From a virus (lineage: Duplodnaviria > Heunggongvirae > Uroviricota > Caudoviricetes): 64,000 bases of DNA. The notes under the pieces were generated by a model. The model did not search any database. It was not told where the DNA came from and worked only from the letters and a program-made list of their open reading frames with translations. Made by a program: the position numbers and the translations under genes. The DNA is taken from positions 52,090 through 116,089 of IMG/VR virus record IMGVR_UViG_3300041407_000207; one strand, given 5' to 3'. This document shows, piece after piece, positions 3,153 to 63,880 of the stretch. Position 1 is the stretch's first letter. The number at the start of each line of letters is the position of its first letter.

Positions 3153-3160
3153 TTATACCA
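3153..3160 (-). promoter_or_regulatory. extended -10 box TGGTATAAC (minus-strand reading)
   Basis: Member of the conserved cTGGTATAA(C/G) family upstream of minus-strand units. Lies in the 85-aa gene/E1 gene junction. Confidence 0.4.
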
Positions 3161-3161
3161 A

Positions 3162-3419
3162 CTACAAGCCTTGTTCTGCGAGTCGTGCTTTACCCGGAAC
3201 ACTGAGCTCGTCATGAGCCTTGCGGATTATCTCCAACAACCAATCATCTTGGTTTTGATCCGAAAGGACTTCGATGCAGTTGAGGCCGACTGCGTACGCC
3301 ATGGCTACATCGGTGCCCTCTACTTCTTCGACGACGGTGAAGTCGTCTTGTCTCGAGAACTCGATAAGCGGCATGATCGCTTTACGCAGTTCAGCCTCGT
3401 CGTACATCTCATCGCTCAT
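3162..3419 (-). CDS. small acidic hypothetical protein, 85 aa, between the JAB and E1 genes
   Basis: AGGAG ribosome-binding site 7 nt upstream. Same polarity as the operon. The opposite-strand ORF 3150-3425 was judged spurious. Confidence 0.45.
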   Translation of the reverse strand: MSDEMYDEAELRKAIMPLIEFSRQDDFTVVEEVEGTDVAMAYAVGLNCIEVLSDQNQDDWLLEIIRKAHDELSVPGKARLAEQGL

Positions 3420-3469
3420 GAATAGCTCCTGAGGATCGTAGTCAAGCGGAAGTGCTTTGTTTAGGAACC

Positions 3470-4522
3470 CTACTTCTCCGACCCATCCAAATCTTTCAGC
3501 TTCCTCTGAAGACGAGTCGAACCCGGAACCATTCGTTTGCCTTTGCGAGATTGGCGCCCCGATACCTGCGGGCGCTGCGGAAAAGGGAGGAAAGAGTCCT
3601 CCTCAGTTCCGCTACACGGAAAAGGGAAACCAAACTGATTCAGCACCTCCGTATCGTCAGCGCTCAAACCTACAGATTCCAAAGCCATCGAGCCATTATT
3701 TCCGCGAAAGCTTTCGTTGGCTACTACCCGACCTCCGGGCGTTGTAGTGGTACTTCTGTTAGCACCACCCCCAGTGGTCCCGGCCCCACTCGTATTCTGG
3801 GAATACAGAGGACGGGTGTTGTACGTCGGGGCTACATACTGCTGCTTTTTTACCTGTGCCAACCATTCGGCGGGCACCTCCGTGGTTTCATAGGTTTCGA
3901 AAATCAACTCCGGAGGAAGTGGATTGATCTTCATATTGCCAGGCAGGTTGAATCGGAAAACCTTGTCGCAGGTAGTGCTCAGCTTGCCGATTACGCCAGA
4001 AACGTAGCAGTTGCCACGGTCGTCGCTGTCATCGGTACCGCTGAAGAATGCACCCATATCGTTGTGACTATGGATGTCCAGGACGATTACGTCTTCCGAG
4101 GTCAGGAACCCAGCCCAGTTGTAGTTAACCGCACCCGCCGAAACAGTCTGCTCAGGGATTCGAACATGGTAGCCCTGGGTAGGGTTCCAGATTACGAAAG
4201 CCATAGCTTCGAGCTTGGCGCCTTTGTGTTCGATCATTACCTGCTTGAAGAATTGCTCGATCTGGTGCAGGAACTTGATAGGGATCTTGCCCGCAGGAAA
4301 GAACGAATTGGTGTCCTGCTTGCAGTCCATCAGCTCAACTTCTTTCGGAGGAGTCGGGCAGGGAACTGTAACCGAACGACCGTGAGTCAAGTTGGTACGA
4401 CGGAAACAGCCGTTACCGCTGATGATGTAGATTTCTGCGAAGTTTTCGGAGATGGCCTCGTCGAGGTCAGTCTTCGTATCAACTACGCAAGAGAAGTACG
4501 GGAGAATAATTCGTTTGGTCAT
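3470..4522 (-). CDS. JAB/MPN (JAMM) metalloprotease domain protein, 350 aa, with a low-complexity G/T-rich C-terminal tail
   Basis: Exact JAMM motif H151-S-H153-x7-S161-x2-D164 (LDIHSHNDMGAFFSGTDDSDD). Upstream Glu (IPEQ). AAGGA ribosome-binding site. Confidence 0.8.
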   Translation of the reverse strand: MTKRIILPYFSCVVDTKTDLDEAISENFAEIYIISGNGCFRRTNLTHGRSVTVPCPTPPKEVELMDCKQDTNSFFPAGKIPIKFLHQIEQFFKQVMIEHKGAKLEAMAFVIWNPTQGYHVRIPEQTVSAGAVNYNWAGFLTSEDVIVLDIHSHNDMGAFFSGTDDSDDRGNCYVSGVIGKLSTTCDKVFRFNLPGNMKINPLPPELIFETYETTEVPAEWLAQVKKQQYVAPTYNTRPLYSQNTSGAGTTGGGANRSTTTTPGGRVVANESFRGNNGSMALESVGLSADDTEVLNQFGFPFPCSGTEEDSFLPFPQRPQVSGRQSRKGKRMVPGSTRLQRKLKDLDGSEK

Positions 4523-4532
4523 GATTCAATCC

Positions 4533-5315
4533 TTAGTAGGAAACCAGTTCGTAAGGGAAACGTTTTTCTTCTTTGTAGACTTCCGCAAGTTTCTTGAACC
4601 AGCTGGAGTGGCTACTGGAGTCAAACCTGACGTTCATCAGGCGAAGGTCATTGTTGAACGGAGAGTTCGCCAAGACCTGGTAGTACGCCTGGAAAATACG
4701 GAGATCACCACCTTCAACCATGTTGAACATCTGGTTCCCACCCATGCACAACGTGTAGTTGTCATAGCAGTTCGGGAAAGGCATGTAGTTGAAGATGCCT
4801 GACAGCCGACCTGGAATAACCATCGGTAGATCATCACGAGCAACAGGAGTCGAATAGTAATAAGCGTGAGCTACCTCGTGCTTCATACCGTTGTTCGAAA
4901 CCTTGAGGACCAGATGGATCACGATGTTAGGCATCATGATCTCATACTGATTCGTTTTGCTGCTGTTGATGTGAGTCAACGTTACTGGCCGCTCTGGGTA
5001 GTAAAGAGCGAGGTTGAGATTGTTACCTGCATACGCAGTCAGGTAGCAGCCTTCTGGCAGTCGCAGAGTTTCTGCACGGGAGTAGTTGAGAACTCCCTGT
5101 GCAGATTCCGCTAAAACTGCCACGAGATCTTTGATTGAGACTGGCTTTGCGAGACTGGACCCGTGACGCGTGATATGGGCACAGTCATCGAAAAGTTCAA
5201 TCTTCATTACTGGATTGGACATTGAGCCTCCGAGTGCTAAATATTCTTCTGCACTTTGCTTATACCAAAAAGGTGTGCAGTACTTAAATGAAGTCGTCTT
5301 CGTCGTCGTTCCCAC
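4533..5315 (-). CDS. hypothetical protein, 260 aa; possible degenerate E2/UBC-like fold
   Basis: GTG start. Segment NYMPFPNCYDNYTLCMGG has the P-N-x7-C spacing of the E2 HPN...Cys active-site loop (F replaces H). Weak evidence. Confidence 0.45.
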   Translation of the reverse strand: MGTTTKTTSFKYCTPFWYKQSAEEYLALGGSMSNPVMKIELFDDCAHITRHGSSLAKPVSIKDLVAVLAESAQGVLNYSRAETLRLPEGCYLTAYAGNNLNLALYYPERPVTLTHINSSKTNQYEIMMPNIVIHLVLKVSNNGMKHEVAHAYYYSTPVARDDLPMVIPGRLSGIFNYMPFPNCYDNYTLCMGGNQMFNMVEGGDLRIFQAYYQVLANSPFNNDLRLMNVRFDSSSHSSWFKKLAEVYKEEKRFPYELVSY

Positions 5316-5778
5316 TTGCCTGGATAAACACAGGAGCCGTGTTTACGCTGCGAGTAAGAATCCGAGTATCGATAATTCCGTTCCCAGAACGAGCACGGCT
5401 TGAACCATTACCCACTACTCGTTCATGATTGGTGCGATACTGAGTAGTAGCGGCCTCGAGAGCCCCAATCTTCAGTATCATTCCTTCCAAGTATTCCCGG
5501 GTTAATTCGTCGGGAAGAGTATTGAAACTTTCACCGAGGCCAGGAGGAAACACTTCGTGACTTCCGGAGATAGTCCCTTCGTTCCAGTAATTCTCGCAGG
5601 AGAATTCGACGCCCATGGCTTCATGAACTTTTCGAATGTAATCGATCATGTTCTGAAACCCTTCTGAAGAAGGGGCATTCGATTTACACTCAGCAAACAA
5701 CATCTCGCAAGCTTCACCAAAAGTGAGGCCTGCAAAACGATCTACGGGTTCTTCAATTACGACCTGGGCTGCGTCCAT
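5284..5778 (-). CDS. hypothetical protein, 164 aa
   Basis: Overlapping start/stop with its neighbours (operon packing). Acidic C-terminus. Confidence 0.45.
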   Translation of the reverse strand: MDAAQVVIEEPVDRFAGLTFGEACEMLFAECKSNAPSSEGFQNMIDYIRKVHEAMGVEFSCENYWNEGTISGSHEVFPPGLGESFNTLPDELTREYLEGMILKIGALEAATTQYRTNHERVVGNGSSRARSGNGIIDTRILTRSVNTAPVFIQASGNDDEDDFI

Positions 5779-6677
5779 TTGTATTCTCCGGAAGAGCCTG
5801 ATGTTTGTGTGAAGGGAAGCTTGTCGCCGCTAGCAATTACGCTATAGACGTTACGATCCGAGTAGAGATCTTTGTTATTCCCGTGGAAGTTTTGATCGTA
5901 TTCCGTAAGAACACGCCAATCTCGAAAATTAACTTTTCGATTGAAATTAACGATTGGAAACTTCGGGTCTTCGCCCCAAGTACCATCATGACTTCGAATT
6001 TTCCGAGTCAGCGTGCTCAGGACTTTATTGACGCCATTGACTACTTGACCGATATCCATGGTGCGGAGGATAGCTTTCAAAGTACCGACGTTACCGTCAA
6101 ATCTTCCGCCGAGATCGTTAGCGAACTGCTCGCGAACTCGAATACACATTCCATGGATGTTTTCGCCCACGACGGCAGAGGAGTTATCGAGAGTAGCTAC
6201 CCGGCTGTTGAAGCTGTTGCCGGATCCAATGCGGATGTCGAAGAAGCCCGGATACTTCCGGAGTAGTCGGCCCAAGTAACGAATCACTGCGCCGTCTGCC
6301 GGGAGGAAGAAAACTACTTCAGAAAGACCGTTTATTTCGGTCGCTGGAATAGGCCCATTGAAGCCTTGAAGATCTACCGACGCCCAATCGTGCAGAGCTT
6401 TAAAGTAAATACTCCGGAAATCGTTAGCTCCACGGGGAGCAGAAACGGTGCCTCGAGTAGGTACCTTCATACGGTGGAAAATTTCGGTGAACATAGTACC
6501 GAGACGGCTATTGAGCAAAGCCCAGGTATTATGGCTAACGGGCTGGAACGGGGTGTACTGGTTGTTAGACAACGCCTGTGCTCGACGAGAGATCGTTCGA
6601 TTTCGATTGGCGTTGGCAATCAATTGAGTCTGAGTATTATCAATCAGAACGTTTCCGTTCTCATCAAAAGCATACAT
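5757..6677 (-). CDS. hypothetical protein, 306 aa
   Basis: Long ORF in operon polarity. Begins just downstream of the terminator at 6706-6735. Confidence 0.5.
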   Translation of the reverse strand: MYAFDENGNVLIDNTQTQLIANANRNRTISRRAQALSNNQYTPFQPVSHNTWALLNSRLGTMFTEIFHRMKVPTRGTVSAPRGANDFRSIYFKALHDWASVDLQGFNGPIPATEINGLSEVVFFLPADGAVIRYLGRLLRKYPGFFDIRIGSGNSFNSRVATLDNSSAVVGENIHGMCIRVREQFANDLGGRFDGNVGTLKAILRTMDIGQVVNGVNKVLSTLTRKIRSHDGTWGEDPKFPIVNFNRKVNFRDWRVLTEYDQNFHGNNKDLYSDRNVYSVIASGDKLPFTQTSGSSGEYKWTQPRS

Positions 6678-6705
6678 GATGGAGCCTCCTCCAAATGACT
6701 AAAAG

Positions 6706-6735
6706 AAAAGCCTCCACTAGGGAGGCTTTTTTTGG
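6706..6735. terminator. bidirectional hairpin terminator / attenuator between the 66-aa gene and the 306-aa gene
   Basis: aaagAAGCCTCC-actag-GGAGGCTTttttt; T-runs on both strands. Confidence 0.55.
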
Positions 6736-6789
6736 CTTGAGGAAAGCTAAGACTAAGTCCTAGCTTTCACTCTTGCCGACCGGGCTGGA

Positions 6790-6990
6790 TTAGCAGCCTT
6801 TGGTGCCGACGCGTGCAGCGAAGGTGATGGTACGTTCTTCGCCAGAATCGACGCTGGTGCCGTCCATGCTGTTGATGGCCGGAACGCTCGAACCGTACAT
6901 GCTTTTCACTGCTTCGACCGTTTGAGCACCTGGCAGGGTGAAGGTCTGACCGGTGGTGCTGATAACGATTTTGGTAGTGTTGATAGCCAT
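6790..6990 (-). CDS. small protein, 66 aa; candidate beta-grasp (ThiS/MoaD/ubiquitin-like) with a non-canonical C-terminus ...RVGTKGC
   Basis: AGGAG ribosome-binding site 9 nt upstream and own promoter box at 7054-7061. Length and hydrophobic/Gly pattern (INSMDG...ERTITFAARVGtkgc) parallel ThiS (...DGD.I.I...VGGG). Followed by a terminator, suggesting high expression relative to the enzymes. Confidence 0.45.
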   Translation of the reverse strand: MAINTTKIVISTTGQTFTLPGAQTVEAVKSMYGSSVPAINSMDGTSVDSGEERTITFAARVGTKGC

Positions 6991-7053
6991 GGATGAAACT
7001 CCTAATGCATTTGGGATTTTTAGCTAAAGAGATAGTTCTCTCTCGCACTATTG

Positions 7054-7061
7054 TTATACCA
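7054..7061 (-). promoter_or_regulatory. extended -10 promoter TGGTATAACAATAGTGCGAGAGAG (minus strand)
   Basis: The near-identical 24-mer recurs at 42490-42512 upstream of the non-coding RNA locus. Confidence 0.55.
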
Positions 7062-7153
7062 GACATTCACTAAATATTGAAATTTATTAGCCTAAAAAGA
7101 GCTGCGCGGAGTTTAAAGGCTCTATATCAATGCTTTCAGAGTGGCGTCTTTGG

Positions 7154-7648
7154 TCTAGACAAATCTTGTCTACGGATAAGTGCTTGATTTCATTGGGTTT
7201 AGTCAAAGTTTAGACAAAGTAGACAAAAGCTGTCTAGAGTTTGTCTACGGCTCAAACCCACGGTCCGTAAGGCCTGCAGGGGTGCGCTAGACAAAATGAC
7301 AAGATTTTTCTCTGCACATGCACTCAGAGTGTGGATTTGTCACCTCAAGAAAATAAATCAGATCCATGACAACACCCCCCCTTTTGTCTACCAGCACATG
7401 AGTATATTTATAAATATATTTATATATATATATGTAGGTAGGAGTTTCAAATCTTTTATGTGGGGTTTACAAGCTTTGAGTGCATGTGAAACTTCAAATC
7501 TTGTCATTTTGTCTAGCGCAGGATTCAAAGCCATACAGGACGTGGCCTGCAGCCCTAGACAAACCTTAGACAGCTTTTGTCTATTTTGTCTAGATTCTGA
7601 CGAAGCCCAATGAATACGGGTACTTGGCCGTAGACAAGATTTGTCTAG
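7154..7648. repeat. nested inverted-repeat region built from TAGACA/TGTCTA hexamers around an AT-rich core
   Basis: Outer inverted repeat 7154-7175 / 7627-7648 (22 bp). Middle 7220-7239 / 7566-7582. Inner 7284-7306 / 7496-7518 (23 bp). About 15 hexamer copies. Centre 7396-7432 is (TA)n-rich. Confidence 0.7.
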
Positions 7649-7855
7649 AGGATTTAGTCCATGCTGAAACTATTGAGTTAGAGCCTTCAAATGCCGCGCA
7701 GGCTCTAGAACGTTGCTTGTAGGAGTCGTGCCCTTAAGGTCTCTTCAGAATACCTCTTCGTAAGTACGTAGGAGCTCCTGAGAGCCTGCAGGAGACCCGA
7801 TCTACTGCCGACCTACCCAACGGTACTGATTACTTACTAACGGGGCTTATAGAGC

Positions 7856-7894: not shown

Positions 7895-7901
7895 ACCAGG
7901 C

Positions 7902-7911
7902 CTTTAAACTG
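7902..7911 (+). promoter_or_regulatory. candidate late-promoter / leader element CTTTAAACTG
   Basis: Identical 10-mer at 57431-57440 upstream of phoH. The related TTAAACT occurs at 58272-58278. Confidence 0.35.
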
Positions 7912-9614: not shown

Positions 9615-9650
9615 CTCTAAGCCTAAAATCTAACTAGAAGTGAGACATAG

Positions 9651-38576: not shown

Positions 38577-38624
38577 TAGATCATCCAGTACAGAGTTACG
38601 TTGATGGAAAGTACTGCAACTTTC

Positions 38625-48177: not shown

Positions 48178-48180
48178 TGT

Positions 48181-49116: not shown

Positions 49117-49124
49117 GATTCCTC

Positions 49125-49730: not shown

Positions 49731-50313
49731 CTAACAAAATGATTTCTGCAACGCACCCACCTGCAAGAACGAAGAAGCTCGCTATGCAGAGGTTGTCGTC
49801 AGCTCTATTCCACGTAGAGTAGACTGGCTTGTCATGAGTCCAAGTCCACCACGCAAATTTTCGCTCTACCGGTTCCGAGCCAACTTTCCAAAGCACCTGA
49901 AGGATCCGCTTTGTAACTACGAACACCGCGTACATAGCCAGGAACTTCAGGATAGATACCCCGATTACTTTCCAGAGAATGACGCCGATAGTGATAAGGC
50001 CAGCTGGAGTTTTGATGAACTCGTTTACCGAGATGTTCAACTGCTTAGCCGCTGCGCCCATCGCGTTAGCAAAGCCTTCTGCTACCTGAGCCCAACCGGT
50101 GATTCGCTCCGGGGTGATCATTGGTGCATTTTTTTCAGTAGTTTTTTCCAAAGCTTCTTTGCGGATTTGATCGAGACGAAGAGTCTCACAATCGGCCTTG
50201 AGCTTTTGAACCACAGCGTCCGGAAGGCCAGAGTTACCGATTTCGCAAGTACCGTACGCGGCGAACGCACCTGAGCTGAACATCATTGCAACTACGAGAA
50301 AAATACGTTTCAT
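49714..50313 (-). CDS. secreted/membrane protein with signal peptide, 199 aa
   Basis: MKRIFLVVAMMFSSGAFA signal. Two further hydrophobic helices. Confidence 0.45.
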   Translation of the reverse strand: MKRIFLVVAMMFSSGAFAAYGTCEIGNSGLPDAVVQKLKADCETLRLDQIRKEALEKTTEKNAPMITPERITGWAQVAEGFANAMGAAAKQLNISVNEFIKTPAGLITIGVILWKVIGVSILKFLAMYAVFVVTKRILQVLWKVGSEPVERKFAWWTWTHDKPVYSTWNRADDNLCIASFFVLAGGCVAEIILLVGLLL

Positions 50314-50735
50314 TTGATTTCCTTAGTCAGAACTGGGATAGGCAATTCATTAAACCAATTTTCAACTGCCTGTTTGAATTCCTTGCAAGAAGAAGGGTCT
50401 TCCAAAGCCCCTGAGAGCCAGCCGCCAAGCTCATCTTCGGCAGGGGTCATTTTCTCTTCATACTTGCGGACGAACACTTTGTCTTGGACAAACCGCTCAA
50501 GCGTCTGAGACCAGTATTTGCCCTGAGCGTAGTAGCACACCGTTACTAGGTAGTCAGGTTTAGTTGCGTGCTCGTTGGTCAGAAGAATTGTGGTGTACTC
50601 CTGACCGTCTTCGTGCCGCCAGATCTGATCATCGGAAACCGAGGCCATTAACTTCTTTTTGGCATCGGCCTCCCGTTTCTCTTTCCGCTGACGTGGGCTC
50701 AGGGTGATCGTTACTACTTTCTTTGGCTGCTTCAT
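50310..50735 (-). CDS. hypothetical protein, 141 aa
   Basis: ORF. Confidence 0.4.
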   Translation of the reverse strand: MKQPKKVVTITLSPRQRKEKREADAKKKLMASVSDDQIWRHEDGQEYTTILLTNEHATKPDYLVTVCYYAQGKYWSQTLERFVQDKVFVRKYEEKMTPAEDELGGWLSGALEDPSSCKEFKQAVENWFNELPIPVLTKEIK

Positions 50736-51163
50736 CAGACCAACTCCTGTTGAACTTTAATTTCCGGACGGAGAGCGTCGAGACGTTTTTGAGAATCTTG
50801 GAGTTCTTTCTCCGCAATTCGGAACGCCTCTTTCCCTTCTTTTTCTAGGATGACCAAAACGTCGTCAAGAAGATCTGGCAATTTATCAGTTATAGCCGTT
50901 GCCAGAGCATTCAAAAACGAAGGGTCATTGAGATGAAAACTCCCAGAGCGCCCATCTGGAATCTGTGCTGAAAGAAGGAAGGTAAGTGGATACGGGCTTT
51001 TAGAAGCGTGAACTCCTGCAGTAGTATTCCTCATCTCCAACTTCCTATTGCTAGAGGAACCTAGCCGGACACCTTCCTTAGTTACCCCCTTAGCTTCCAG
51101 GAATTGCCAGCTAAGACGTTTATGAAGGTCCCGCAAATCCCTAGCTTTGTTGAGACTGTCCAT
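50735..51163 (-). CDS. hypothetical protein, 142 aa
   Basis: ORF. Confidence 0.4.
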   Translation of the reverse strand: MDSLNKARDLRDLHKRLSWQFLEAKGVTKEGVRLGSSSNRKLEMRNTTAGVHASKSPYPLTFLLSAQIPDGRSGSFHLNDPSFLNALATAITDKLPDLLDDVLVILEKEGKEAFRIAEKELQDSQKRLDALRPEIKVQQELV

Positions 51164-51365
51164 TGCACACCCCGCACAATTTATCGGTAAACTTCTTTAC
51201 TACTTCAGGAGTAGCGTCATAGGCTTTTGCCAGAAACAACGCCTTGGCGTCTTTGAACTGGGCCTCGGTAATAGGAGTGCCACGGTTCAAAAGGCCTTGG
51301 GCCATCAACATGATAAAACGTTCTTTACCATTAGGTTTATGAAAACTCATCAGGTCTACCCTCAC
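51141..51365 (-). CDS. hypothetical protein, 74 aa
   Basis: First gene after the promoter box at 51396-51403. Confidence 0.4.
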   Translation of the reverse strand: MRVDLMSFHKPNGKERFIMLMAQGLLNRGTPITEAQFKDAKALFLAKAYDATPEVVKKFTDKLCGVCNGQSQQS

Positions 51366-51395
51366 ACAATCTAATTAGAATCTTTCTCAATTTAC

Positions 51396-51403
51396 TTATA
51401 CCA
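51396..51403 (-). promoter_or_regulatory. extended -10 box TGGTATAAGTA (divergent from the plus-strand late element at 51410-51421)
   Basis: Motif family. Confidence 0.45.
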
Positions 51404-51409
51404 GGTTGT

Positions 51410-51421
51410 CAGAGTAAACTA
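51410..51421 (+). promoter_or_regulatory. candidate late-promoter element CAGAGTAAACTA
   Basis: Identical to 7871-7882. 22 nt before the ATG at 51444. Confidence 0.4.
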
Positions 51422-51443
51422 GGCAAATACGTCAAATTATTTA

Positions 51444-54070: not shown

Positions 54071-55819
54071 TCACGCCGCCATAGGAAGAGATTCCGTCAG
54101 GTTTGTACGCAGCGATGTCATCGTCGCTTCCGAGAGGACTTGACTGTTACGCAGCACACAGTTCAAATCCCCGTTGTAGCCGACCGGCTTACCTTCGACG
54201 AGTTCATACTCGTTGTCTTGATCGAGTTCAAGAGACAACCAGCCTTTCGCAGACTTTTTGCCAGGGTCGGTCTTCGGCGCTTTGTAGACGTCGATCTTCA
54301 TGTTGCCTACTTCGCCATAGGTGAGCTTCATTGCGAAGCCCAACGAATCTCGAGTCAGGTACTGGAGACTGTAGCTGCCTACGCCTACCACGATGTTTTC
54401 CGCAGAGAAGCCCATTTCCATCAAACGTTGCAGAATTGCTTCGAAACGCTGGATGGTGATGGAGTCGCCGTAGATCATGCGGATGTGTGGGTCCAGGACT
54501 TTGAAACCCTTGGAGTTCACAGTGCCGCCGAATACGTTCCACAGATGTTGGACAGTACCGGTCTCTTCTACCGTGGGAGTGGTAGGTTCGAACTGAGTTA
54601 CTGTTTTGCCGTCCATGTAGTAGAACTGTCTGTCTTTGCGGTTCCATTCGATGGAGACGGTGTAGCGATACACTTGACCTTTCCAACGAGCCAGGCCAGA
54701 AACTTCGCTTTCGCCATGCTGGCCGTGTTCAGTTTCGTCTTGGACTTTTTCAGTAACGTAGTCCAGTACCCAACCGCTAGCGTGTTTCTCAGTCTCGGCT
54801 TCATCTCCGATTTCAAAGATTTCAGCGGTTCCGCAGATCACTTCGATAGGGACGCCAGTATCCGGACGAACTACGAATGGGCCCCCTTCACGAGCCATGA
54901 TCTTGTCTTTGAGACGAGGCAGGGCGTATTCCAGCATGCCGTAATAGTCGTAGCTGTCCATAACGAAGCTGATGGGGCCGACGTTGTCCAGGTAGTCAGA
55001 TAGGAAGGCAATTTCTGCTTCCAGCAGTGAACAGCCACGAACAGCTGCGATCATCTGAATGTTGAGGGTGGTTAGAGAGTGCTCGGTGGCCATGATCGAA
55101 CCGAAGTCCGCCTTGGTTGCACCGTACTCATGCATTGCAGCCAAGCAGCCAGGGATGTTATCCGAACCACTGAACGCAGCCAGGAAAGGAGCACCAGTTT
55201 TGTAGCCAGCAGTCATCCCGGTAAGTCCCCGGAGACTGAAGTCGTGACACTGGTACTTAACGTAGCCATTGTCGTCTGCAGTCAGTGCTGCGTACTTCTC
55301 AGCAACGATGCGGTATTCACGAGCAGCAGTGGCTACGGTACTTGGATACCACAGCTCGTTACTGAAGTGATCCTCCATGTAGCTTGCAAGCCACGCAAAG
55401 TCGTCATGCGTGTTGGTCACCAGCATGATCGGGGTGTTTGCTTTTACTACTCGGCCTTCTTCTACTGCATGGACTTCGATAGGCAAATAGCCAAGAGCGT
55501 GCAGATCCGAAAGACGAGTGAGGTCTGCGTTCGGAATGGTCGCCTCGATCAATGGCCGAATCACTTCTTCAACTTCGTCCCACGAGTCTTCGAAGAACAA
55601 GTTCCAAGCATGGTTGATAGCGCACATCCCCTGGAGAATGCCCGCTGCGACGATCTTACCGTCGTACATCGAGCTGCCTTGGAAGTGCTTGGTATTTCGA
55701 GGAGTAAAGTTACCTTGACCCTTCGTGTAGCCTTTTGGGTACAGACCTGGGTGACAGAACTTGTAAGCGTCACAGAGGATGGCTGCGTACAGTTTTGCTG
55801 GGGGGGTACTCATTCGCAT
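54071..55819 (-). CDS. nicotinamide phosphoribosyltransferase-family enzyme (Nampt/NadV or the NARP1 Namat variant), 582 aa
   Basis: MDSYDYYG and VVRPDTGVP match Nampt VSDSYDIY and IIRPDSGNP. IRMIYGDSITIQRF...VGVGSYSLQYLTRD matches LRVIQGDGVD...FGSGGALLQKLTRD. C-terminal KAPKTDPGKKSAKGWLSL matches KDPVADPNKRSKKGRLSL. Confidence 0.85.
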   Translation of the reverse strand: MRMSTPPAKLYAAILCDAYKFCHPGLYPKGYTKGQGNFTPRNTKHFQGSSMYDGKIVAAGILQGMCAINHAWNLFFEDSWDEVEEVIRPLIEATIPNADLTRLSDLHALGYLPIEVHAVEEGRVVKANTPIMLVTNTHDDFAWLASYMEDHFSNELWYPSTVATAAREYRIVAEKYAALTADDNGYVKYQCHDFSLRGLTGMTAGYKTGAPFLAAFSGSDNIPGCLAAMHEYGATKADFGSIMATEHSLTTLNIQMIAAVRGCSLLEAEIAFLSDYLDNVGPISFVMDSYDYYGMLEYALPRLKDKIMAREGGPFVVRPDTGVPIEVICGTAEIFEIGDEAETEKHASGWVLDYVTEKVQDETEHGQHGESEVSGLARWKGQVYRYTVSIEWNRKDRQFYYMDGKTVTQFEPTTPTVEETGTVQHLWNVFGGTVNSKGFKVLDPHIRMIYGDSITIQRFEAILQRLMEMGFSAENIVVGVGSYSLQYLTRDSLGFAMKLTYGEVGNMKIDVYKAPKTDPGKKSAKGWLSLELDQDNEYELVEGKPVGYNGDLNCVLRNSQVLSEATMTSLRTNLTESLPMAA

Positions 55820-55830
55820 TGGGCTACTCC

Positions 55831-56670
55831 TTAGTAGTTTTCACGGGTTACGTTGAGGATACGGAGGTTACCTTCGCCTTGCAGCTCACGATGGTAACTG
55901 TTGGTGGAGATTACTTCGTCGTAGATACCGGTAACGACGGCAGTCCCCTTGGAGAACAGACCGTGGGTCACTGCCAAGCTTACCGAAGCAGCGCCCTGTT
56001 CTTTCAGGGAGTGATACAGCGGCACGAATGTACCGCAGCCATCACCGATATCATCCAGGACCAGCAGAGTACGACCTTCGACAGTATCGTTGACCCGGGT
56101 TCCGGAGATAGAACCAGTTGCGAGGTCACGAACCTTGGTGCAGTGAATTACGCCAGCCGCACCTACTTTTCTGGCGAACGATTCCGCCTTCTTAGCAGCA
56201 CCACCATCTGGAGCTGCGATATAGACTTCACGCCACGAGGTATAGATATCACGGAAGATATCGAACTGGGTCACAACTTCCAGGCGGTTGAACAGAGCCG
56301 ATGTAACCTCGCTGTGAGGGTCCAGGATCTTCACGCTGGCAAAGTTACAGGCGTTGATATGCTTAGCCACCACGGCGATGCTGAGAGGCTCACCTGGGTT
56401 GCAAACACGGTCTTGTCGGGCGTATGGCATGTACGGGATGAAGGCAGAGACGTCTGCACGAGGATAGACTCGACGAACAGCGTCCTCGATAAACAGCAGG
56501 TTCAAGAGATCGCCCTGAGTAGTGAGTCGAGCTACAATTTCGACCGACTCTACTTTCTCTGGATAGAGACCTCCGTCCTGGATTTGAGGAACTACTTCAC
56601 CACCTGGAAAGTGAATGTAGGTGATTTCTTCGGTGCAGTTGCCTTTGCGCAGATAAATAGTGCCTTTCAT
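55831..56670 (-). CDS. ribose-phosphate pyrophosphokinase-family enzyme (Prs, or the ADPR-pyrophosphorylating Adps variant), 279 aa
   Basis: IPYMPYARQDR (Prs IPYFGYARQDR). PRPP-binding loop LVLDDIGDGCGT (Prs LVDDMIDTGGT). Confidence 0.75.
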   Translation of the reverse strand: MKGTIYLRKGNCTEEITYIHFPGGEVVPQIQDGGLYPEKVESVEIVARLTTQGDLLNLLFIEDAVRRVYPRADVSAFIPYMPYARQDRVCNPGEPLSIAVVAKHINACNFASVKILDPHSEVTSALFNRLEVVTQFDIFRDIYTSWREVYIAAPDGGAAKKAESFARKVGAAGVIHCTKVRDLATGSISGTRVNDTVEGRTLLVLDDIGDGCGTFVPLYHSLKEQGAASVSLAVTHGLFSKGTAVVTGIYDEVISTNSYHRELQGEGNLRILNVTRENY

Positions 56671-57383
56671 TTTTGTTTCCCCTTTCGGAAGCTGTGTTTA
56701 TCGAAGCCGTGAGCCTGGATCAGTTCCTGGTCACTGGCGGTGTGTTTCATTTGATTGGCGGTGTTCAGGGTACCGGAAATAAATGCCGAGATCTCCTGGA
56801 ATACTGAAACGCCATCTTTGAACTTGGTGAGACCCCATTCTTTCAAGCAGGGGTTGGTTATGAGAGTATTGTCGAAAGCGATGAACATCGGTACGTTCAA
56901 AGCAGTGAACACCTCTACGTTTTCACGAAACACCGGAGTTTCGAAGTCTTCGAACAAAGTTCTCTCAGTTCTCCAATTCCGGTACTGGCCATACCAATCC
57001 GCAGGTAGGGCAGTTTTATCGAAAGCTGCGACATAGCTCTTTTTATCGAAAATAGATGAGTGGAGCATTACGCTGAGGTTAGTGGGTTTAGTCTCTCGAA
57101 AAAGAACTACCCGGTGAAGGACTCCGCAGAACCCGAACACTACAACGTCGTAAGGATCTCGACGTGCAATCGTGTCCGCAAAATCTCCGGTGAGACGACG
57201 GCCCCAACCATCACATGCATTGATGACCATTTGGTGGACTGGAGAAGGATTGTCCATCCGCTTACCCGGAGAGTACGGGGTCATGCGGACCTTTTCTTCC
57301 TCCCGGTTGTAACGAACTTGAGTATCCACGCCATACGCAGCGCAGTTATCATAGAAATCACGAAACTTCGAAGTAATTAGCAT
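56667..57383 (-). CDS. hypothetical protein, 238 aa; first gene of the NAD-module operon
   Basis: Overlaps the Prs-like start. No motif recognised. Confidence 0.45.
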   Translation of the reverse strand: MLITSKFRDFYDNCAAYGVDTQVRYNREEEKVRMTPYSPGKRMDNPSPVHQMVINACDGWGRRLTGDFADTIARRDPYDVVVFGFCGVLHRVVLFRETKPTNLSVMLHSSIFDKKSYVAAFDKTALPADWYGQYRNWRTERTLFEDFETPVFRENVEVFTALNVPMFIAFDNTLITNPCLKEWGLTKFKDGVSVFQEISAFISGTLNTANQMKHTASDQELIQAHGFDKHSFRKGKQK

Positions 57384-57408
57384 TTTGTTTCCTCCTTTGC
57401 TAAAGTTC

Positions 57409-57416
57409 TTATACCA
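57409..57416 (-). promoter_or_regulatory. extended -10 box TGGTATAAGAAC
   Basis: Motif family. Divergent from the plus-strand element at 57431-57440. Confidence 0.45.
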
Positions 57417-57430
57417 GGTTCCGACCTGCG

Positions 57431-57440
57431 CTTTAAACTG
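57431..57440 (+). promoter_or_regulatory. candidate promoter/leader element CTTTAAACTG
   Basis: Identical to 7902-7911. Confidence 0.35.
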
Positions 57441-57469
57441 TAAATACCAGTATCTTTCCGAGGTGGTCT

Positions 57470-58228
57470 ATGAGCAGATATAAAACGCCAGAAACACGTC
57501 AAGCTAGTCGGAACAAGAAGAACGCAGGGAAATTCCCCGAATTGGTCGCCGGGCAGAGTGAGTTGGATGCTCATCTAGAGCAGCAGATGAACAAAATTCG
57601 GTTTGGACCCCTCCAAGGTCGAAATGCCAAACAGAATTTCATGATTCAGACGATAAAGGATAAGAGAATCTCCTTTATCATTGGCCCTGCCGGTACTGGT
57701 AAGACTTTCGTAGCTACTTCCATGGCTTGCGAAATGCTGGAAGCTGACCTTATTGAGAGGATCACCATCGTTCGGCCTATGGTGGGCTGTGAAGAAGAGA
57801 TGGGTTTCGTGCCTGGGACGGAATATGAGAAATACGCTCAATGGCTAGGCCCTTTTCTCGATGTACTAGAAGGTAAGTTAGGAAAAACCAAGGTTGCTTC
57901 CTATCTCAAGTATGGAAAGATCGTAGCCAGCCCCCTAATGACCATGCGTGGATCTACTTTCCGTAACGCAATGGTTATCCTGGACGAAGCTCAGAACACT
58001 ACTCCGGGCCAAATGAAGATGTTCCTGACCCGTTTGGGCGAAGGTTCTCGGGTAGTGGTAGACGGAGACCTTGAACAGTCAGATTTGCCGTACGGAAAAG
58101 ACAACGGTCTGGCCGATGCTCTTCAGAAAATGGAAAACTCTAACTCTGCAGGATTCGTAGAGTTCACTGAGGATGAGATCACGAGAGATCCACTAGTACG
58201 AGAAATCGTAATGGCATACCGCAAGTAA
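57470..58228 (+). CDS. phoH: PhoH-family ATPase, 252 aa
   Basis: Walker A GPAGTGKT. ILDEAQN. Confidence 0.75.
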   Translation: MSRYKTPETRQASRNKKNAGKFPELVAGQSELDAHLEQQMNKIRFGPLQGRNAKQNFMIQTIKDKRISFIIGPAGTGKTFVATSMACEMLEADLIERITIVRPMVGCEEEMGFVPGTEYEKYAQWLGPFLDVLEGKLGKTKVASYLKYGKIVASPLMTMRGSTFRNAMVILDEAQNTTPGQMKMFLTRLGEGSRVVVDGDLEQSDLPYGKDNGLADALQKMENSNSAGFVEFTEDEITRDPLVREIVMAYRK

Positions 58229-58255: not shown

Positions 58256-58271
58256 TCTATTCCGAATCCTA

Positions 58272-58278
58272 TTAAACT
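58272..58278 (+). promoter_or_regulatory. candidate promoter element TTAAACT
   Basis: 32 nt upstream of the TTG start of the helicase gene. Confidence 0.3.
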
Positions 58279-58309
58279 CTCTTTACTAAACCCATTCGGA
58301 ATAACTGCA

Positions 58310-59782
58310 TTGAACCAGTACCTAACCAAGATCGCCAAACAGTCTGAAAAGAAGAACAAGGACTCAAGCCGTCATCACGACAAAGTCTTGGAGATGCTGG
58401 ATAAAGGAAATGGCGCAGTTGCTCAACATTCCATGGGCTCGGGTAAAACCCTGCTGGCTTTGAAAGCGGCTGCCCGTGCTCAAAAACGCAATCCGCACAA
58501 AGATGTGATTATCTCGGCCCCGGCTTCTGTGATTAAACAGTTCCCGGAAGAAGCTAAGAAATTCGGTATCAAGCTAAATGATAAACATACCAAGTACTTC
58601 TCTCACGAAGAGCTGGTGAACAAAGCCGAGTCTCTGGCTAAGAATAAAAACTCTCTCCTCATCATTGATGAAGGCCATCGTCTTCGCAACAAAGATACCG
58701 CTAAGAATCGTGCCCACGCCTTAGTCCGTGGTTCCTCTGACAAAGCACTGATCCTCAGCGGGACCAGCATGTACAATAAACCACACGACATCGCTGCTTT
58801 AGTGAACCTAGCAACTGGCAAGGAAACTCTTCCAGATTCAGAAGCCAAGTTCAGAGAGAAGTTCATAGCTACTGAAAAAGTAAGTCCAGGCTTTATGAGG
58901 ACTCTGTTCGGAGCCAAACCTGGTGAGAAGGAACGTCTTCGTAACGGCAATGAGCTGAAGAAACTCCTTAAGGGCACAGTTCATAACTATGATGCCCAGA
59001 CTGATATGCCTGAAGAGTTTGCAACTACCACGGAAACTATTCACAAGACCCCTATGTCTAAGGAGCAGGATAGGTACTACCGTTTTGCAGAGAATAATAT
59101 CCCTTGGCCTATCCGGGCAAAGATACGTGCAGGCCTACCACTATCTAAAAAAGAGAATGCTTCCCTGAATGCGTTCTCCTCAGGTGTCCGCCAAATTTCC
59201 AACAGCTATGCTTCTTATACTATGGACCCCTCGAAAGTAGAGGCATCTCCTAAGTTCCAAGAGATGATCAATCACTCAGACGAACTTCGTAAGAAGCAGA
59301 AGAAAGGATACAGGAACGTAGTCTACTCTAACTACCTCGGCAGTGGTCTGGCCCACTACAGTAAACAGTTGAAAGACAAAGGCATTTCTCACGGAGTCTA
59401 CACCGGTGAGCTGAGCAAGACCGAGAAGAAAAAGATGGTTGACGAGTACAACGATGGGGAATTCGACACTCTGCTCCTATCCAGCTCTGGGGCAGAAGGT
59501 TTGAATTTGAAAGGCGTTACTCACATGCAAGTCATGGAGCCGCACTGGAATGACTCAAAGATTCGTCAAGTAATCGCCCGTGCGGTTCGTAGAGGAAGCC
59601 ATGCTCACCTAGAAAAAGCAGATCGTCATGTACAGGTAGACCACTACCACTCCGAGCTTCCAAAAGGATTTTTGGGCAAGGCCAAAGGTAAGTCCATCGA
59701 CGAATACCTCTACTCTATGAGCCAGGATAAAGAAGTTCTGAAGAAAGATATAAACAAACTGATTGACGCAAACTCTAAATAA
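58310..59782 (+). CDS. SF2 (SNF2/DEAD-like) helicase, 490 aa
   Basis: TTG start. Motif I MGSGKT. Motif II IIDEGHRL. Motif III LSGT. C-terminal SSSGAEGLNL and QVIARAVRRGS. Confidence 0.6.
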   Translation: MNQYLTKIAKQSEKKNKDSSRHHDKVLEMLDKGNGAVAQHSMGSGKTLLALKAAARAQKRNPHKDVIISAPASVIKQFPEEAKKFGIKLNDKHTKYFSHEELVNKAESLAKNKNSLLIIDEGHRLRNKDTAKNRAHALVRGSSDKALILSGTSMYNKPHDIAALVNLATGKETLPDSEAKFREKFIATEKVSPGFMRTLFGAKPGEKERLRNGNELKKLLKGTVHNYDAQTDMPEEFATTTETIHKTPMSKEQDRYYRFAENNIPWPIRAKIRAGLPLSKKENASLNAFSSGVRQISNSYASYTMDPSKVEASPKFQEMINHSDELRKKQKKGYRNVVYSNYLGSGLAHYSKQLKDKGISHGVYTGELSKTEKKKMVDEYNDGEFDTLLLSSSGAEGLNLKGVTHMQVMEPHWNDSKIRQVIARAVRRGSHAHLEKADRHVQVDHYHSELPKGFLGKAKGKSIDEYLYSMSQDKEVLKKDINKLIDANSK

Positions 59783-63159: not shown

Positions 63160-63236
63160 TGGTGGGCCCTGAGTGACTTGAACACTCGACCAAGCGATTA
63201 TGAGTCGCCTGCTCTGACCAACTGAGCTAAGGGCCC
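63160..63236 (-). tRNA. tRNA-Met(CAU) (elongator/initiator/Ile2 not distinguishable by eye)
   Basis: Acceptor GGGCCCT/AGGGCCC. D-arm GCTC-AGTTGGTC-AGAGC. Anticodon stem GGCGA/TCGCT with loop CTCATAA. T-arm GAGTG-TTCAAGT-CACTC. Encoded CCA. Confidence 0.7.
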
Positions 63237-63244
63237 CAACTTCT

Positions 63245-63538
63245 TCAACTGTAATTGACGTAGAACTTATAGTCAACGCTTATAACGAAATCCTTGTCAC
63301 CCGTAATGAAGTTATGAAGTACTGGTACGTGAGCTTTGATCAAGTTCATCCAGCGAACATTGAACTCAATAGATTCCAGAGGGAGTAGCTCTATACTTCT
63401 GTGGAAGTACGGATCTATCGACTCTTTAAGCTTGGCTACTGCGTCTTCATCAGTTACTTGATAAGAGTTAGTGAAGATTACCTTAAGAGTATGACCTTCG
63501 CCAGTAGCCATGTAGTCATATACTAAAACTGATTTCAT
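63245..63538 (-). CDS. hypothetical protein, 97 aa
   Basis: ORF. Confidence 0.4.
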   Translation of the reverse strand: MKSVLVYDYMATGEGHTLKVIFTNSYQVTDEDAVAKLKESIDPYFHRSIELLPLESIEFNVRWMNLIKAHVPVLHNFITGDKDFVISVDYKFYVNYS

Positions 63539-63750
63539 TACGCGTTACCTGTACGGCACGCATCTACTTTCAAACCTTCTACTACACCAATTGATTGGCC
63601 GAAGGTGAGATTGCCACAAGTATTGCCGCGAGCGTAGACCACCGTGATTACAGAGGTAGGATTGTACCCTGCAAGAGTAACGACCTGCTCGTAGGAGATC
63701 TTGTCTTCTTCAGAGAGTTCGTGCTCTTTGCCATTGATCGAAATCTTCAT
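63538..63750 (-). CDS. hypothetical small protein, 70 aa (possible beta-grasp-like)
   Basis: MKISINGKEHEL...VTLAGYNP pattern faintly ThiS-like. ATGA coupling to the downstream gene. Weak. Confidence 0.35.
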   Translation of the reverse strand: MKISINGKEHELSEEDKISYEQVVTLAGYNPTSVITVVYARGNTCGNLTFGQSIGVVEGLKVDACRTGNA

Positions 63751-63793
63751 GTGAACCTCTTCTATCTAAAGTAGTTGAGGGCCGAAGCCCTCG

Positions 63794-63862
63794 AACAAAC
63801 AGGGCTCGAACCTGCAACTCACGACAATTCGTGCATTCTACCGATTGAAATATTGTTCTTCC
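63794..63862 (-). ncRNA. tRNA-like RNA with a truncated anticodon arm, own promoter and a 3' UUCG hairpin
   Basis: D-loop AATCGGTAGAAT. T-arm GCAGG-TTCGAGC-CCTGT. 6-bp acceptor GAACAA/TTGTTC with a 1-72 mismatch. The anticodon region folds only as CACGA-ATTG-TCGTG (4-nt loop), so there is no canonical anticodon loop. Followed by GAGGGC-TTCG-GCCCTC (63777-63792). Confidence 0.4.
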
Positions 63863-63872
63863 TACAAAGTAC

Positions 63873-63880
63873 TTATACCA
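63873..63880 (-). promoter_or_regulatory. extended -10 box TGGTATAAGTAC driving the tRNA-like RNA
   Basis: Motif family. Predicted transcription start about 63865, at the 5' end of the tRNA-like element. Confidence 0.45.

Follow-up and report, generated by a model that had tools for sequence, protein, structure and literature searches.

A clade-conserved extended −10 motif predicted to act as a phage-specific promoter at the head of minus-strand gene blocks

Within a 64-kb stretch of phage DNA (the window), the sequence TGGTATAA(G/C) is predicted to be the core of a promoter class that is specific to one phage clade and has a sigma-70-family architecture. We lean towards a reading in which this class is used by a phage-encoded sigma factor, sigma-1, together with the multisubunit RNA polymerase (RNAP) of the clade rather than by host sigma-70.

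The exact motif TGGTATAA(C/G) (TGGTATAAS) occurs nine times in the window, always on the minus strand, whereas dinucleotide shuffling gives a mean of 0.74 copies and none of 100 shuffles reached nine. The −10 hexamer ends in C at five of these sites, in G at four and in T at none. There were 22 non-exact, one-mismatch variants in the window against about 21 expected, and the lack of such a halo defines a sharp motif family. A sequence-only reading of the same DNA had listed eight copies, all of which exist; their coordinates were each 1 too high (the true low ends are 3152, 7053, 39139, 41181, 42504, 51395, 57408 and 63872), and a ninth exact copy at 5259–5267, upstream of a gene with its ATG at about 5224, had been overlooked. 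Its statement that the motif is absent before plus-strand late genes agrees with the scan, which found no plus-strand copy in the 64 kb; far from being equally frequent on both strands, the motif is distributed nine to zero. The sites were scored with a position weight matrix (PWM) trained on clade sites, the null being the maximum in shuffled sequence (10–13.7). The predicted promoters, with the genes that they would drive, are as follows.

Promoter 1, 3145–3180, minus strand: core TGGTATAAC at 3152–3160 (exact motif), predicted +1 at 3145, PWM 20.1; 56 nt from the motif at 3152 to the ATG at 3096 of a ThiF/E1-like gene (1840–3096, Pfam ThiF); a hairpin and T-run (about 3110–3148) overlap the predicted start, and the orthologous site in relative L005 keeps both TGGTATAAC and the hairpin.
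Promoter 2, 5252–5287, minus strand: core TGGTATAAG at 5259–5267 (exact motif), predicted +1 at 5252, PWM 33.2, the top score among the sites; 35 nt from the motif at 5259 to the ATG at about 5224 of a gene with the ribosome-binding site GGAGG, followed by a JAB-domain gene (3470–4522, Pfam Prok-JAB); conserved in L005.
Promoter 3, 7046–7081, minus strand: core TGGTATAAC at 7053–7061, −35 TTCAAT at 7076–7081, predicted +1 at 7046, PWM 29.4; 63 nt from the motif at 7053 to the ATG at 6990 of a 66-aa gene (6790–6990); −35 and core both conserved in L005.
Promoter 4, 39132–39167, minus strand: core TGGTATAAC at 39139–39147, predicted +1 at 39132, PWM 20.3; 44 nt from the motif at 39139 to the ATG at 39095 of an RNase H gene (38625–39095, Pfam RNase_H); the stop codon of Ro60 (Pfam TROVE/vWA_Ro60) at 39140–39142 falls within the motif, and a terminator-like hairpin (39111–39130) lies directly downstream.
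Promoter 5, 41174–41209, minus strand: core TGGTATAAG at 41181–41189, predicted +1 at 41174, PWM 18.5; 38 nt from the motif at 41181 to the ATG at 41143 of a DUF3268 zinc-finger gene (40664–41143), with Ro60 also driven; preceded by a terminator of the RNA locus.
Promoter 6, 42497–42532, minus strand: core TGGTATAAC at 42504–42512, −35 TTCAAC, predicted +1 at 42497, PWM 27.1; about 199 nt from the motif at 42504 to the first of two YrlA-like (Y RNA-like) genes of a non-coding locus (42166–42305 and 41810–41922; Rfam YrlA, E = 7.7e-7 and 1.9e-4, both under the gathering score).
Promoter 7, 51388–51423, minus strand: core TGGTATAAG at 51395–51403, predicted +1 at 51388, PWM 23.2; 43 nt from the motif at 51395 to an ATG at about 51352; divergent to a plus-strand gene at 51444.
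Promoter 8, 57401–57436, minus strand: core TGGTATAAG at 57408–57416, predicted +1 at 57401, PWM 22.5; 25 nt from the motif at 57408 to the ATG at 57383, heading an NAD-salvage block (56667–57383; PRPP synthetase, 55831–56670; NAPRTase-family gene, 54071–55819); divergent to a PhoH gene at 57470.
Promoter 9, 63865–63900, minus strand: core TGGTATAAG at 63872–63880, predicted +1 at 63865, PWM 26.1; motif at 63872, 13 nt from the tRNA end at 63859, and promoter 6 nt ahead of this tRNA gene (63791–63859; Rfam tRNA, 43.1 bits where the gathering score is 29; not called by ARAGORN), the first of a tRNA/small-ORF block.
Borderline tenth site, 48366–48401, minus strand: one-mismatch match GGGTATAAC at 48373–48381, PWM 14.5, barely above noise; in or at the start of ORF 48181–48516, and either a weak internal promoter or a chance match.

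All nine exact copies are either intergenic or overlap the end of a gene, and each points the same way as the gene, tRNA or Y-RNA-like gene that follows it. The distance had been put at 30–60 nt, which is roughly right; it ranges from 13 to 63 nt to a minus-strand start codon or tRNA and comes to about 200 nt at the Y-RNA-like gene. The claim that the motif heads every minus-strand block holds, since a copy stands at the upstream end of all four (1840–7066, headed by promoter 3; 35550–51365, a long block headed by promoter 7; 54071–57383; and 60437 to the window end). Motif copies are often found directly beside terminators. The near-identical 24-mer reported at two sites was borne out by alignment of 7038–7061 with 42489–42512 (22 identical bases, then A/G, then G), and their extra identity is not kept in L005; the pair has the appearance of a promoter cassette that was copied within the genome. 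The co-regulation also proposed, of the Ubl gene with the RNA locus, holds only in the trivial sense that all nine units have one promoter class in common.

The anatomy of the sites agrees with the earlier proposal of an extended −10 promoter family. A 17-bp spacer ending in TGG leads into the −10 element TATAA(G/C) and an A-rich 6-nt discriminator, with flanking bases at fixed spacing: T at −1 in 10/10 window sites and 30/34 sites of Salmonella phage Arash, and a purine at +1 in 10/10 and 34/34, respectively. The proposal had dispensed with a −35 box; in fact, a weak TTCAAT(A) lies 17 bp upstream of the −10 at several sites. At one promoter in Arash (69569) and three in Vibrio phage D69 (78487, 74587 and 85619), the Shine-Dalgarno sequence GGAGG starts exactly at the predicted +1, so that transcription must begin no further downstream than that base.

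The motif is conserved across the whole phage clade. GGTATAAS occurs 34 times on the minus strand and once on the plus strand of Arash; D69 carries the form G(T/G)TATAAG, with 24 minus- and one plus-strand copies of TG.TATAAG; and 44 metagenomic IMG/VR relatives hold 228 minus- and 20 plus-strand copies of GGTATAAN. In L005, which is only about 70% identical in DNA, three orthologous promoters retain the core, even with the same −7 base, and the orthologous positions conserve the core only, not the flanks. The promoter position ahead of RNase H is shared with Arash, where GGTATAAG at 109240 lies directly upstream of RNase H gp184c.

A candidate reader of the motif is encoded in the window itself.

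Sigma-1, 18820–19515, plus strand: sigma-70-family factor of 231 aa in the virion module (Pfam Sigma70_r3).

Its profile matches cover RpoS/SigA regions 2.1–3.1, FliA regions 3–4 and SigF over the full length, and region 1 is absent from these profile and structure-family matches. In group-1 sigma factors, region 1.2 forms part of the pocket for the −7 T. Sigma-1 is 41% identical to Arash gp10 and has >180 homologs, many on contigs of 150–190 kb. Clade genomes carry genes for a beta/beta'-N fusion and a beta'-C subunit of RNAP, and for two sigma factors, either of which could on sequence grounds read the motif; the second is Arash gp196 and D69 VPHD69_0246. Both polymerase genes are found on one contig in a relative with a 90%-identical terminase, from which we infer that this phage carries them outside the window. 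The genes for sigma-1, the polymerase subunits and an SNF2 helicase, the last adjoining the beta'-C gene, are all located among virion genes, on the plus strand, which is free of the motif. Mass spectrometry of Arash virion preparations detected gp10, the sigma-1 counterpart, as well as both polymerase subunits and the SNF2 helicase, gp206 being the most abundant (PMC10585845). The same proteome also holds many clearly non-structural enzymes, e.g., ribonucleotide reductases and RNA ligases, and its authors raise possible contamination by abundant proteins (PMC10585845), for which reasons packaging of the polymerase is a tentative reading.

The sequence-only reading had assigned the motif to host sigma-70, and strong early extended −10 promoters used by the unmodified host holoenzyme, with phage RNAP and sigma factors serving later classes, are a serious but clearly less probable possibility. 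The geometry fits, as in the bacterial consensus TGnTATAAT: TG at −15/−14, T at −12, A at −11, a weak −35-like hexamer at 17 bp (TTCAAT, a 3/6 match to TTGACA) and a purine start 7 nt past the hexamer with a T before it. Arash and D69 both infect gammaproteobacteria, whose sigma-70 specificity is the same, and conservation between these two phages alone is therefore compatible with host reading. Precedent exists in Thermus phage P23-45, whose middle and late promoters have a conserved extended −10 and are read by the host polymerase; the uncertain packaging of the phage enzyme also leaves room for the host's. The −7 base weighs against it. At sigma-70 promoters, no contacts are better conserved than T at −7 and A at −11. 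The −7 T is found at 0/9 window sites and at 9 of the 228 minus-strand GGTATAAN sites of the 44 relatives (G 176, C 24, A 19), about 4%, which is near the plus-strand background, whereas T4-type phages, which depend on host sigma-70, retain it whatever their host group (TATAAT, TAYWAT, TAWWAT; PMC4122927). A standard sigma-70 scan requiring T at hexamer position 6 recovered none of the motif sites and no excess elsewhere. TATAAT is under-represented two- to threefold in the window and in Arash, with no depletion in D69. Other departures from the bacterial promoter are the base at −13, almost always G in the window and in Arash and either T or G in D69, and far lower degeneracy. The near-absence of the −7 T argues against host sigma-70 and favours a phage sigma factor, in a clade with its own RNAP and sigma factors; host reading would also leave a late-made, apparently packaged polymerase and sigma-1 without a conserved promoter. 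A TG-extended −10 with A at −11 could still permit some initiation by host sigma-70 despite the poor −7 and weak −35.

It is rather unlikely that these are middle-type promoters at which a phage factor synthesized after infection (the second sigma or, as with T4 MotA/AsiA, an appropriator) redirects the host core, with a separate, unrecognized immediate-early class elsewhere in the genome. The clade does encode a second sigma, a D69 gene is annotated as an Srd-like anti-sigma factor, and the window shows only 64 kb of a genome of about 165–185 kb. However, in D69 the gene for the second sigma is itself preceded by promoters of this class, which would create a bootstrapping problem; no other conserved class emerged from motif searches of minus-strand intergenic DNA in the window, Arash and D69; and the motif heads essentially all minus-strand blocks, the outermost included. 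A strand-specific intergenic signal other than a promoter (an RNA processing site, translation signal, protein-binding repeat or mobile cassette) is very improbable: the longer 24-mer is common to two copies and some copies adjoin hairpins, as in T4-type repeated terminator/promoter cassettes (PMC4122927), but hairpins are no general feature of the leaders (z ≤ −2 in 1/9), the core without its flanks is what orthologous positions conserve, start-codon distances of 25–63 nt and targets that include tRNA and Y-RNA-like genes rule against a translation signal, and the −35-like element at 17 bp with T/purine 7 nt downstream is exact promoter geometry.

Among known systems, T4-type early promoters and PeSLs, which are composite terminator/promoter cassettes, are similar in that a large myovirus carries many near-identical strong promoters among small early genes, often abutting a terminator stem-loop (PMC2839356, PMC4122927); the consensus likewise drifts between subgroups of the phage family, and near-identical copies in one genome could mediate recombination. 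Unlike here, where G/C at −7 goes with a phage polymerase and sigma factors, T4-type phages encode no polymerase and keep the −7 T in the early −10; the stem-loop here sometimes lies downstream of the start (39111–39130) or overlaps it (about 3110–3148). The group-3 factor sigma-28 (FliA) recognizes TAAA-N15-GCCGATAA, which resembles our motif in its 8-mer −10 ending in ATAA and specificity bases just upstream. Sigma-1 is comparably short, with regions 2–4 only, and its best solved-structure matches include FliA over regions 3–4 and SigF over the full length. Where the sigma-28 box has its critical CGA, our motif has GTA, and the −35 is also different; we see no sign that the host flagellar sigma is in use.

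The logic that we propose is similar to that of phage N4, whose virion RNA polymerase, made late and carried in the particle, transcribes early genes from a phage-specific promoter. It also resembles that of the phiKZ/AR9 jumbo phages, in which a late-made virion RNAP serves early genes through a short, highly conserved, phage-specific motif (PMC7598289, PMC5312081), and the SNF2 helicase gene beside the beta'-C gene parallels a helicase–RNAP gene association noted in a jumbo-phage review (PMC7824862). The phiKZ/AR9 polymerases consist of 4–5 fragments without a sigma homolog (PMC7824862) and use AT-rich motifs that are not sigma-70-like, unlike the canonical −35/−10 geometry and bona fide sigma-70-family genes here; N4 differs in its single-subunit enzyme and hairpin promoters.

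In the reading that we favour, sigma-1 and the polymerase would be synthesized late from the plus strand and packed into the virion, and the carried enzyme would transcribe the genes of the minus strand when the next cell is infected. The promoters would fire leftward into each of the minus-strand blocks, with their non-structural genes, tRNAs and Y-RNA-like genes, restarting transcription at internal points that often adjoin terminators. The early/late partition by strand proposed from sequence stands in that the motif occurs on the minus strand alone and at the head of each block there, and the label "early" presumably applies to those blocks. A two-class strand partition is plausible because the plus strand of relatives has a motif of another kind (TAAAATA(T) in D69, 27 plus- versus 5 minus-strand copies), to which the second sigma, a minus-strand product in D69, may turn the polymerase.

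The nonamer TGGTATAAS occurs nine times in the 64-kb window, always on the minus strand and never on the plus strand, compared with a mean of 0.74 in dinucleotide-preserving shuffles, none of which reached nine. The sequence-only reading had listed eight sites; all eight exist, but each coordinate was one too high, and a ninth exact site at 5259-5267 had been overlooked. The motif family is sharply bounded because one-mismatch variants, sought in the window as weaker promoters, did not exceed the chance level. Scored with a PWM trained on the relatives only, the nine sites reach 18.5-33.2 versus maxima of 10-13.7 from shuffled sequences, and one extra site at 48373 (GGGTATAAC) is borderline with a score of 14.5. 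Each site, named here by its low coordinate, is intergenic or overlaps a gene end and is directed into a minus-strand gene or RNA; at site 39139, the stop codon of the Ro60 gene falls within the motif. All four minus-strand blocks in the window carry a copy at their upstream end, and the strand partition claimed earlier is supported.

Since Megablast with 12 kb found no close DNA relatives among GenBank phages, we reached relatives via their proteins. The nearest by protein is Salmonella phage Arash (terminase 52% identical), which shares most of its gene order with the window, and the terminases of Vibrio phages D69, D181 and D148 are 43% identical. We also analyzed 45 relative loci, comprising 44 IMG/VR loci taken around the polymerase gene of the clade and L005, a metagenomic relative with a 90% identical terminase and approximately 70% identical DNA.

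Strand counts of the motif and its variants in relatives
Arash, TGGTATAAN: 24 minus, 0 plus
Arash, GGTATAAS: 34 minus, 1 plus
D69, TG.TATAAG: 24 minus, 1 plus
45 relative loci, GGTATAAN: 228 minus, 20 plus

Almost every copy in Arash resides just upstream of leftward genes or tRNAs. The exact window motif shows no strand enrichment in D69 (GGTATAAS, 11 plus and 10 minus); unbiased k-mer enrichment in the intergenic DNA of this phage revealed the variant G(T/G)TATAAG-TAATATAG, which has the same TTCAATAA upstream and a T/purine downstream. L005 retains three of three orthologous promoters with the same bases at -7 (C, G, C), and their flanks have diverged. The promoter upstream of RNase H is found at the same position in the window and Arash. 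Kept across such deep divergence, the pattern is a phylogenetic footprint of a functional element.

The sole plus-strand GGTATAAG in Arash (L001 11588-11595, plus strand) ends 4 nt short of the gp9 ATG, and gp9 in turn immediately precedes the sigma gene gp10. This copy is either a chance occurrence or would supply the sigma gene through a leaderless start; the window has no such copy at the equivalent place. At Arash 171072, 173177 and 139398, the motif is followed by a good ribosome-binding site and an ATG, yet the GenBank record leaves these stretches without a leftward gene or places a rightward gene there, probably reflecting leftward genes missed in the published annotation.

The earlier interpretation of these sites as promoters is supported; the sites have a full promoter anatomy, and the class extends to the whole clade. 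Alignment of the window sites with those of the relatives revealed a weak upstream element, TTCAAT(A), located 17 bp from TATAAS. Between TTCAAT and the hexamer there is usually a C, then a T and an invariant GG; the hexamer, TATAA plus G or C, leads into an A-rich stretch with an A two bases past the hexamer (in 9 of 10 sites of the window and 28 of 34 in Arash) and, further downstream, a conserved T preceded by G or T. TGG precedes TATAAS at all nine window sites, providing the TG at -15/-14 of extended -10 promoters; T occupies -15 in 19 of the 34 Arash sites, and the G at -14 is invariant in the relatives by the definition of the search. The A at -11 is present, and the base at -7 is C or G at nine of nine window sites, where the sigma-70 hexamer TATAAT has T. 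The differences from the host consensus are at positions -7, -13 and -35.

With TATAAS placed at -12 to -7, the T/purine pair falls at -1/+1, which is the usual start context: T at the predicted -1 in 10 of 10 window and 30 of 34 Arash sites, and a purine at the predicted +1 in all sites of both sets (10 of 10 and 34 of 34). At four sites (Arash 69569; D69 78487, 74587 and 85619), the Shine-Dalgarno sequence GGAGG starts exactly at the predicted +1, so the mRNA has to start at or before this base. We also considered an alternative register. Past the -7 base, an A at 2 nt and a T at 6 nt are conserved; their 4-nt spacing is that of A-11 and T-7, so they could form a hexamer nAnnnT, and TGGTATAA would then be bound by a factor upstream of it. 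At the four sites, the Shine-Dalgarno sequence begins 7 nt past the -7 base. This register was rejected because the start would fall downstream of the Shine-Dalgarno sequence at these sites, and TTCAAT would be 23 bp instead of 17 bp from the hexamer.

The motif also precedes non-coding genes, which identifies it as a transcription signal rather than a translation signal: downstream of site 63872, the tRNA gene begins 6 nt past the predicted +1, and site 42504 heads a locus with two YrlA-like RNAs adjoining the Ro60 gene.

Features of the window
1840-3096, minus: ThiF/E1-like protein, in the leftward operon 1840-6990
about 3110-3148, minus: terminator-like hairpin and T-run, across the predicted start of site 3152
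3470-4522, minus: JAB-domain protein, in the leftward operon 1840-6990
6790-6990, minus: 66-aa gene, called beta-grasp/Ubl-like in the sequence-only reading; no Pfam match
39111-39130, minus: terminator-like hairpin and T-run, immediately past the predicted start of site 39139
39140-40645, minus: Ro60 ortholog (TROVE and vWA_Ro60), downstream of the two YrlA-like matches
41810-41922, minus: YrlA-like (Y RNA-like) match, E = 1.9e-4, below the Rfam gathering score
42166-42305, minus: YrlA-like (Y RNA-like) match, E = 7.7e-7, below the Rfam gathering score
59795-60418, plus: alginate-lyase-family protein (Pfam Alginate_lyase2, 3e-31), closing a plus-strand block
63791-63859, minus: tRNA, found by Rfam (43.1 bits; gathering score, 29) but not by ARAGORN

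A hairpin in the 5' leader is not a general part of these promoters: notable folding is confined to the leader of site 39139 (z = -2.0), and z ranges from -1.2 to +0.6 in the others. The predicted start of site 3152 is inside the 5' arm of its hairpin; read-through transcripts could therefore terminate there, and transcripts begun at this site would be unable to form the hairpin. This hairpin and its T-run are kept in L005 even though the stem sequence has changed, and the same layout of hairpin and start is found at Arash 68703 and 87295.

The shared 24-mer reported earlier is present at 7038-7061 and 42489-42512, and the extra identity between the two copies is not conserved in L005. As for the suggested co-regulation of the Ubl-like gene with the RNA locus, both indeed belong to one promoter class; the data carry the claim no further. 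The Ro60 gene and the YrlA-like matches, with RNase H adjoining, would be a candidate phage-borne Ro60/Y-RNA module. The operon 1840-6990 may encode a ubiquitin-like conjugation module. Its homologs in Arash, gp246c-gp248c, are located at the right end of that genome, and three motif-class promoters are spread through the operon, compared with one in the Arash counterpart. Between this leftward block and the terminase gene, the region 7102-7701 contains an inverted repeat whose 228-nt arms (7102-7329 and 7474-7701) are 76% complementary, with an AT-rich palindromic core between the arms (7398-7436). Four perfect 17-bp palindromes, TAGACA-N5-TGTCTA, at 7156, 7220, 7567 and 7631 (0.17 expected) and extra half-sites accompany it. 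The region resembles an origin of replication or an array of operators; its inverted structure is present in L005 as well, and the ORF 7296-7613 inside the repeat is probably spurious. The alginate-lyase-family protein may act as a depolymerase of capsule or exopolysaccharide and gives a hint about the host.

The plus-strand (virion) genes of D69 (loci L006-L009) and Arash (loci L001-L004) carry another motif, short and AT-rich, at a distance of 25-40 nt upstream of the start codon. TAAAATA(T) is found 27 times on the plus and 5 times on the minus strand of D69 (11 and 4 in Arash), and TAAAATAT 17 and 2 times in D69, likely representing a late-promoter class. The window counterpart looks like TTTAAAC or CTAAAAT, with counts too low for statistics; candidates on the plus strand are at 7900-7906, 57447-57453, 58270-58280 and 9620-9630. 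In divergent regions, the two signals stand back to back, with the plus-strand motif directly adjoining the leftward -10 box.

The clade encodes its own RNA polymerase. Arash gp206 is a fusion of beta and the N-terminal part of beta' (domains Rpb2_6, Rpb2_3, Rpb1_1 and Rpb1_2), gp216 is the C-terminal part of beta' (Rpb1_5), and gp10 and gp196 are sigma-70-family proteins. L047, which shares a contig with L005, carries homologs of gp206 and gp216; neither gene lies inside the window, and the polymerase is predicted for the window phage via this close relative. The gp10 homolog, which we call sigma-1, is encoded within the virion module of the window (18820-19515, plus strand), and its gene is met in several metagenomes, with more than 180 metagenomic homologs. 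The family profile of sigma-1 aligns from region 2.1 through 3.1 of RpoS/SigA, with regions 3-4 of FliA, and with SigF over the full length, but has no region 1; its region 3.0 bears an invariant PEN.QL where sigma-70 has PVHMIE.

Mass spectrometry of Arash virion preparations detected gp206 as the most abundant protein, together with gp216, the sigma factor gp10 and the SNF2 helicase gp217, all in abundance (PMC10585845). The particle proteome also contains many metabolic enzymes, for which the authors raise possible carry-over (PMC10585845). The window encodes a gp217 homolog (58310-59782, plus strand), an SNF2-family helicase 38% identical to gp217, which may assist the phage polymerase in the manner of RapA. 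Whereas Arash gp217 (L003 41261-42679) directly follows the gene for the C-terminal part of beta', the window helicase follows a PhoH-like gene (57470-58228) instead. The genes for the polymerase, sigma-1 and the helicase lie on the motif-free plus strand among structural genes. The gene for the second sigma factor (gp196 in Arash, VPHD69_0246 in D69) resides on the minus strand of D69, downstream of motif-class promoters.

The sequence-only reading attributed recognition of the motif to host sigma-70, and a TG-extended -10 element can give some sigma-70 activity. However, sigma-70 reads two flipped-out bases, one of which is the T at -7, and in group-1 sigma factors region 1.2 helps to form the pocket for this T. 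The -7 T is essentially absent from the clade: on the antisense strand of the 45 loci, G is found 176 times, C 24, A 19 and T 9, over a background of 3-7 per base on the sense (plus) strand. T4-type phages, which rely on the sigma-70 of their enterobacterial and Vibrio hosts, retain it, as in TATAAT, TAYWAT and TAWWAT (PMC4122927). A standard sigma-70 scan recovered none of the nine sites and no excess of sites. As the clade also has its own polymerase and sigma factors, the attribution to host sigma-70 is probably wrong. Host hexamers are modestly depleted (TATAAT, 5 observed versus 11-16 expected in the window and 11 versus 21-24 in Arash; TTGACA, 11 versus 20-27 in the window), with no such depletion in D69; this weak hint may reflect avoidance of host sigma-70 sites. 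Host sigma-28 was rejected because the box has ATAA in common with its promoters but is without the critical CGA.

The motif class probably represents phage-specific promoters paired with the phage sigma factor and polymerase. A polymerase and sigma-1 made late and packaged would need promoters in the next cell, and the motif is the only strongly conserved one in these genomes, which leads to the simplest model: the virion-borne polymerase with sigma-1 would read TGGTATAAS and transcribe the leftward genes, including the second sigma factor, which would in turn direct transcription of the rightward virion genes. We slightly favor this model. More tentatively, the motif is a candidate cognate promoter of a virion-delivered, sigma-dependent phage multisubunit polymerase, for which the region-1-less sigma factor, G/C at -7 and G at -13 would provide insulation from the host, with the second sigma factor switching the same polymerase to the TAAAATA-type late class.

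Compared with known systems, the motif is built like an extended -10 promoter, yet departs from sigma-70 at -7. Its many copies next to terminators resemble the PeSL cassettes of T4-type early promoters, which differ in having the sigma-70 consensus at -7. The order of terminator and then promoter is found at window site 41181 and many D69 sites (...TTTTTTAG-TTCAAT...), unlike sites 39139 and 3152, where the hairpin follows or overlaps the start site. By analogy, the two near-identical 24-mers could be copies of a PeSL-like cassette. The proposed logic of a virion-delivered phage polymerase is like that of the phiKZ, AR9 and N4 early promoters, and, as in those phages, a short, highly conserved, phage-specific motif unlike the host consensus lies upstream of the putative early genes. 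A 2021 survey of jumbo phages found those encoding polymerases to be without sigma factors and those encoding sigma factors to be without polymerases (PMC7824862), whereas the clade of Arash and the window phage has both. In our literature search, neither the motif nor a sigma-using phage polymerase proved to have been described; an apparent GGTATAAG match in a paper on the E. coli nirB promoter was irrelevant, and promoters are not mentioned in the Arash paper (PMC10585845).

For this clade of 165-190 kb phages, which is widespread but has hardly been studied, the motif provides a ready map of transcription, and in the published genome of Arash it already points to leftward genes that lack annotation. 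Because the promoter departs from the host consensus mainly at one well-understood position, -7, a small protein and a 9-bp site would allow a direct test of how a sigma factor changes its -10 specificity, and an orthogonal sigma/promoter pair of this kind could serve as an expression tool. A sigma-using phage multisubunit polymerase would fall between the sigma-less phage polymerases and the phages that only supply sigma factors to the host enzyme (PMC7824862). If the model is true, these phages would carry a self-contained two-sigma transcription programme, unlike the sigma-less phiKZ and AR9 enzymes.
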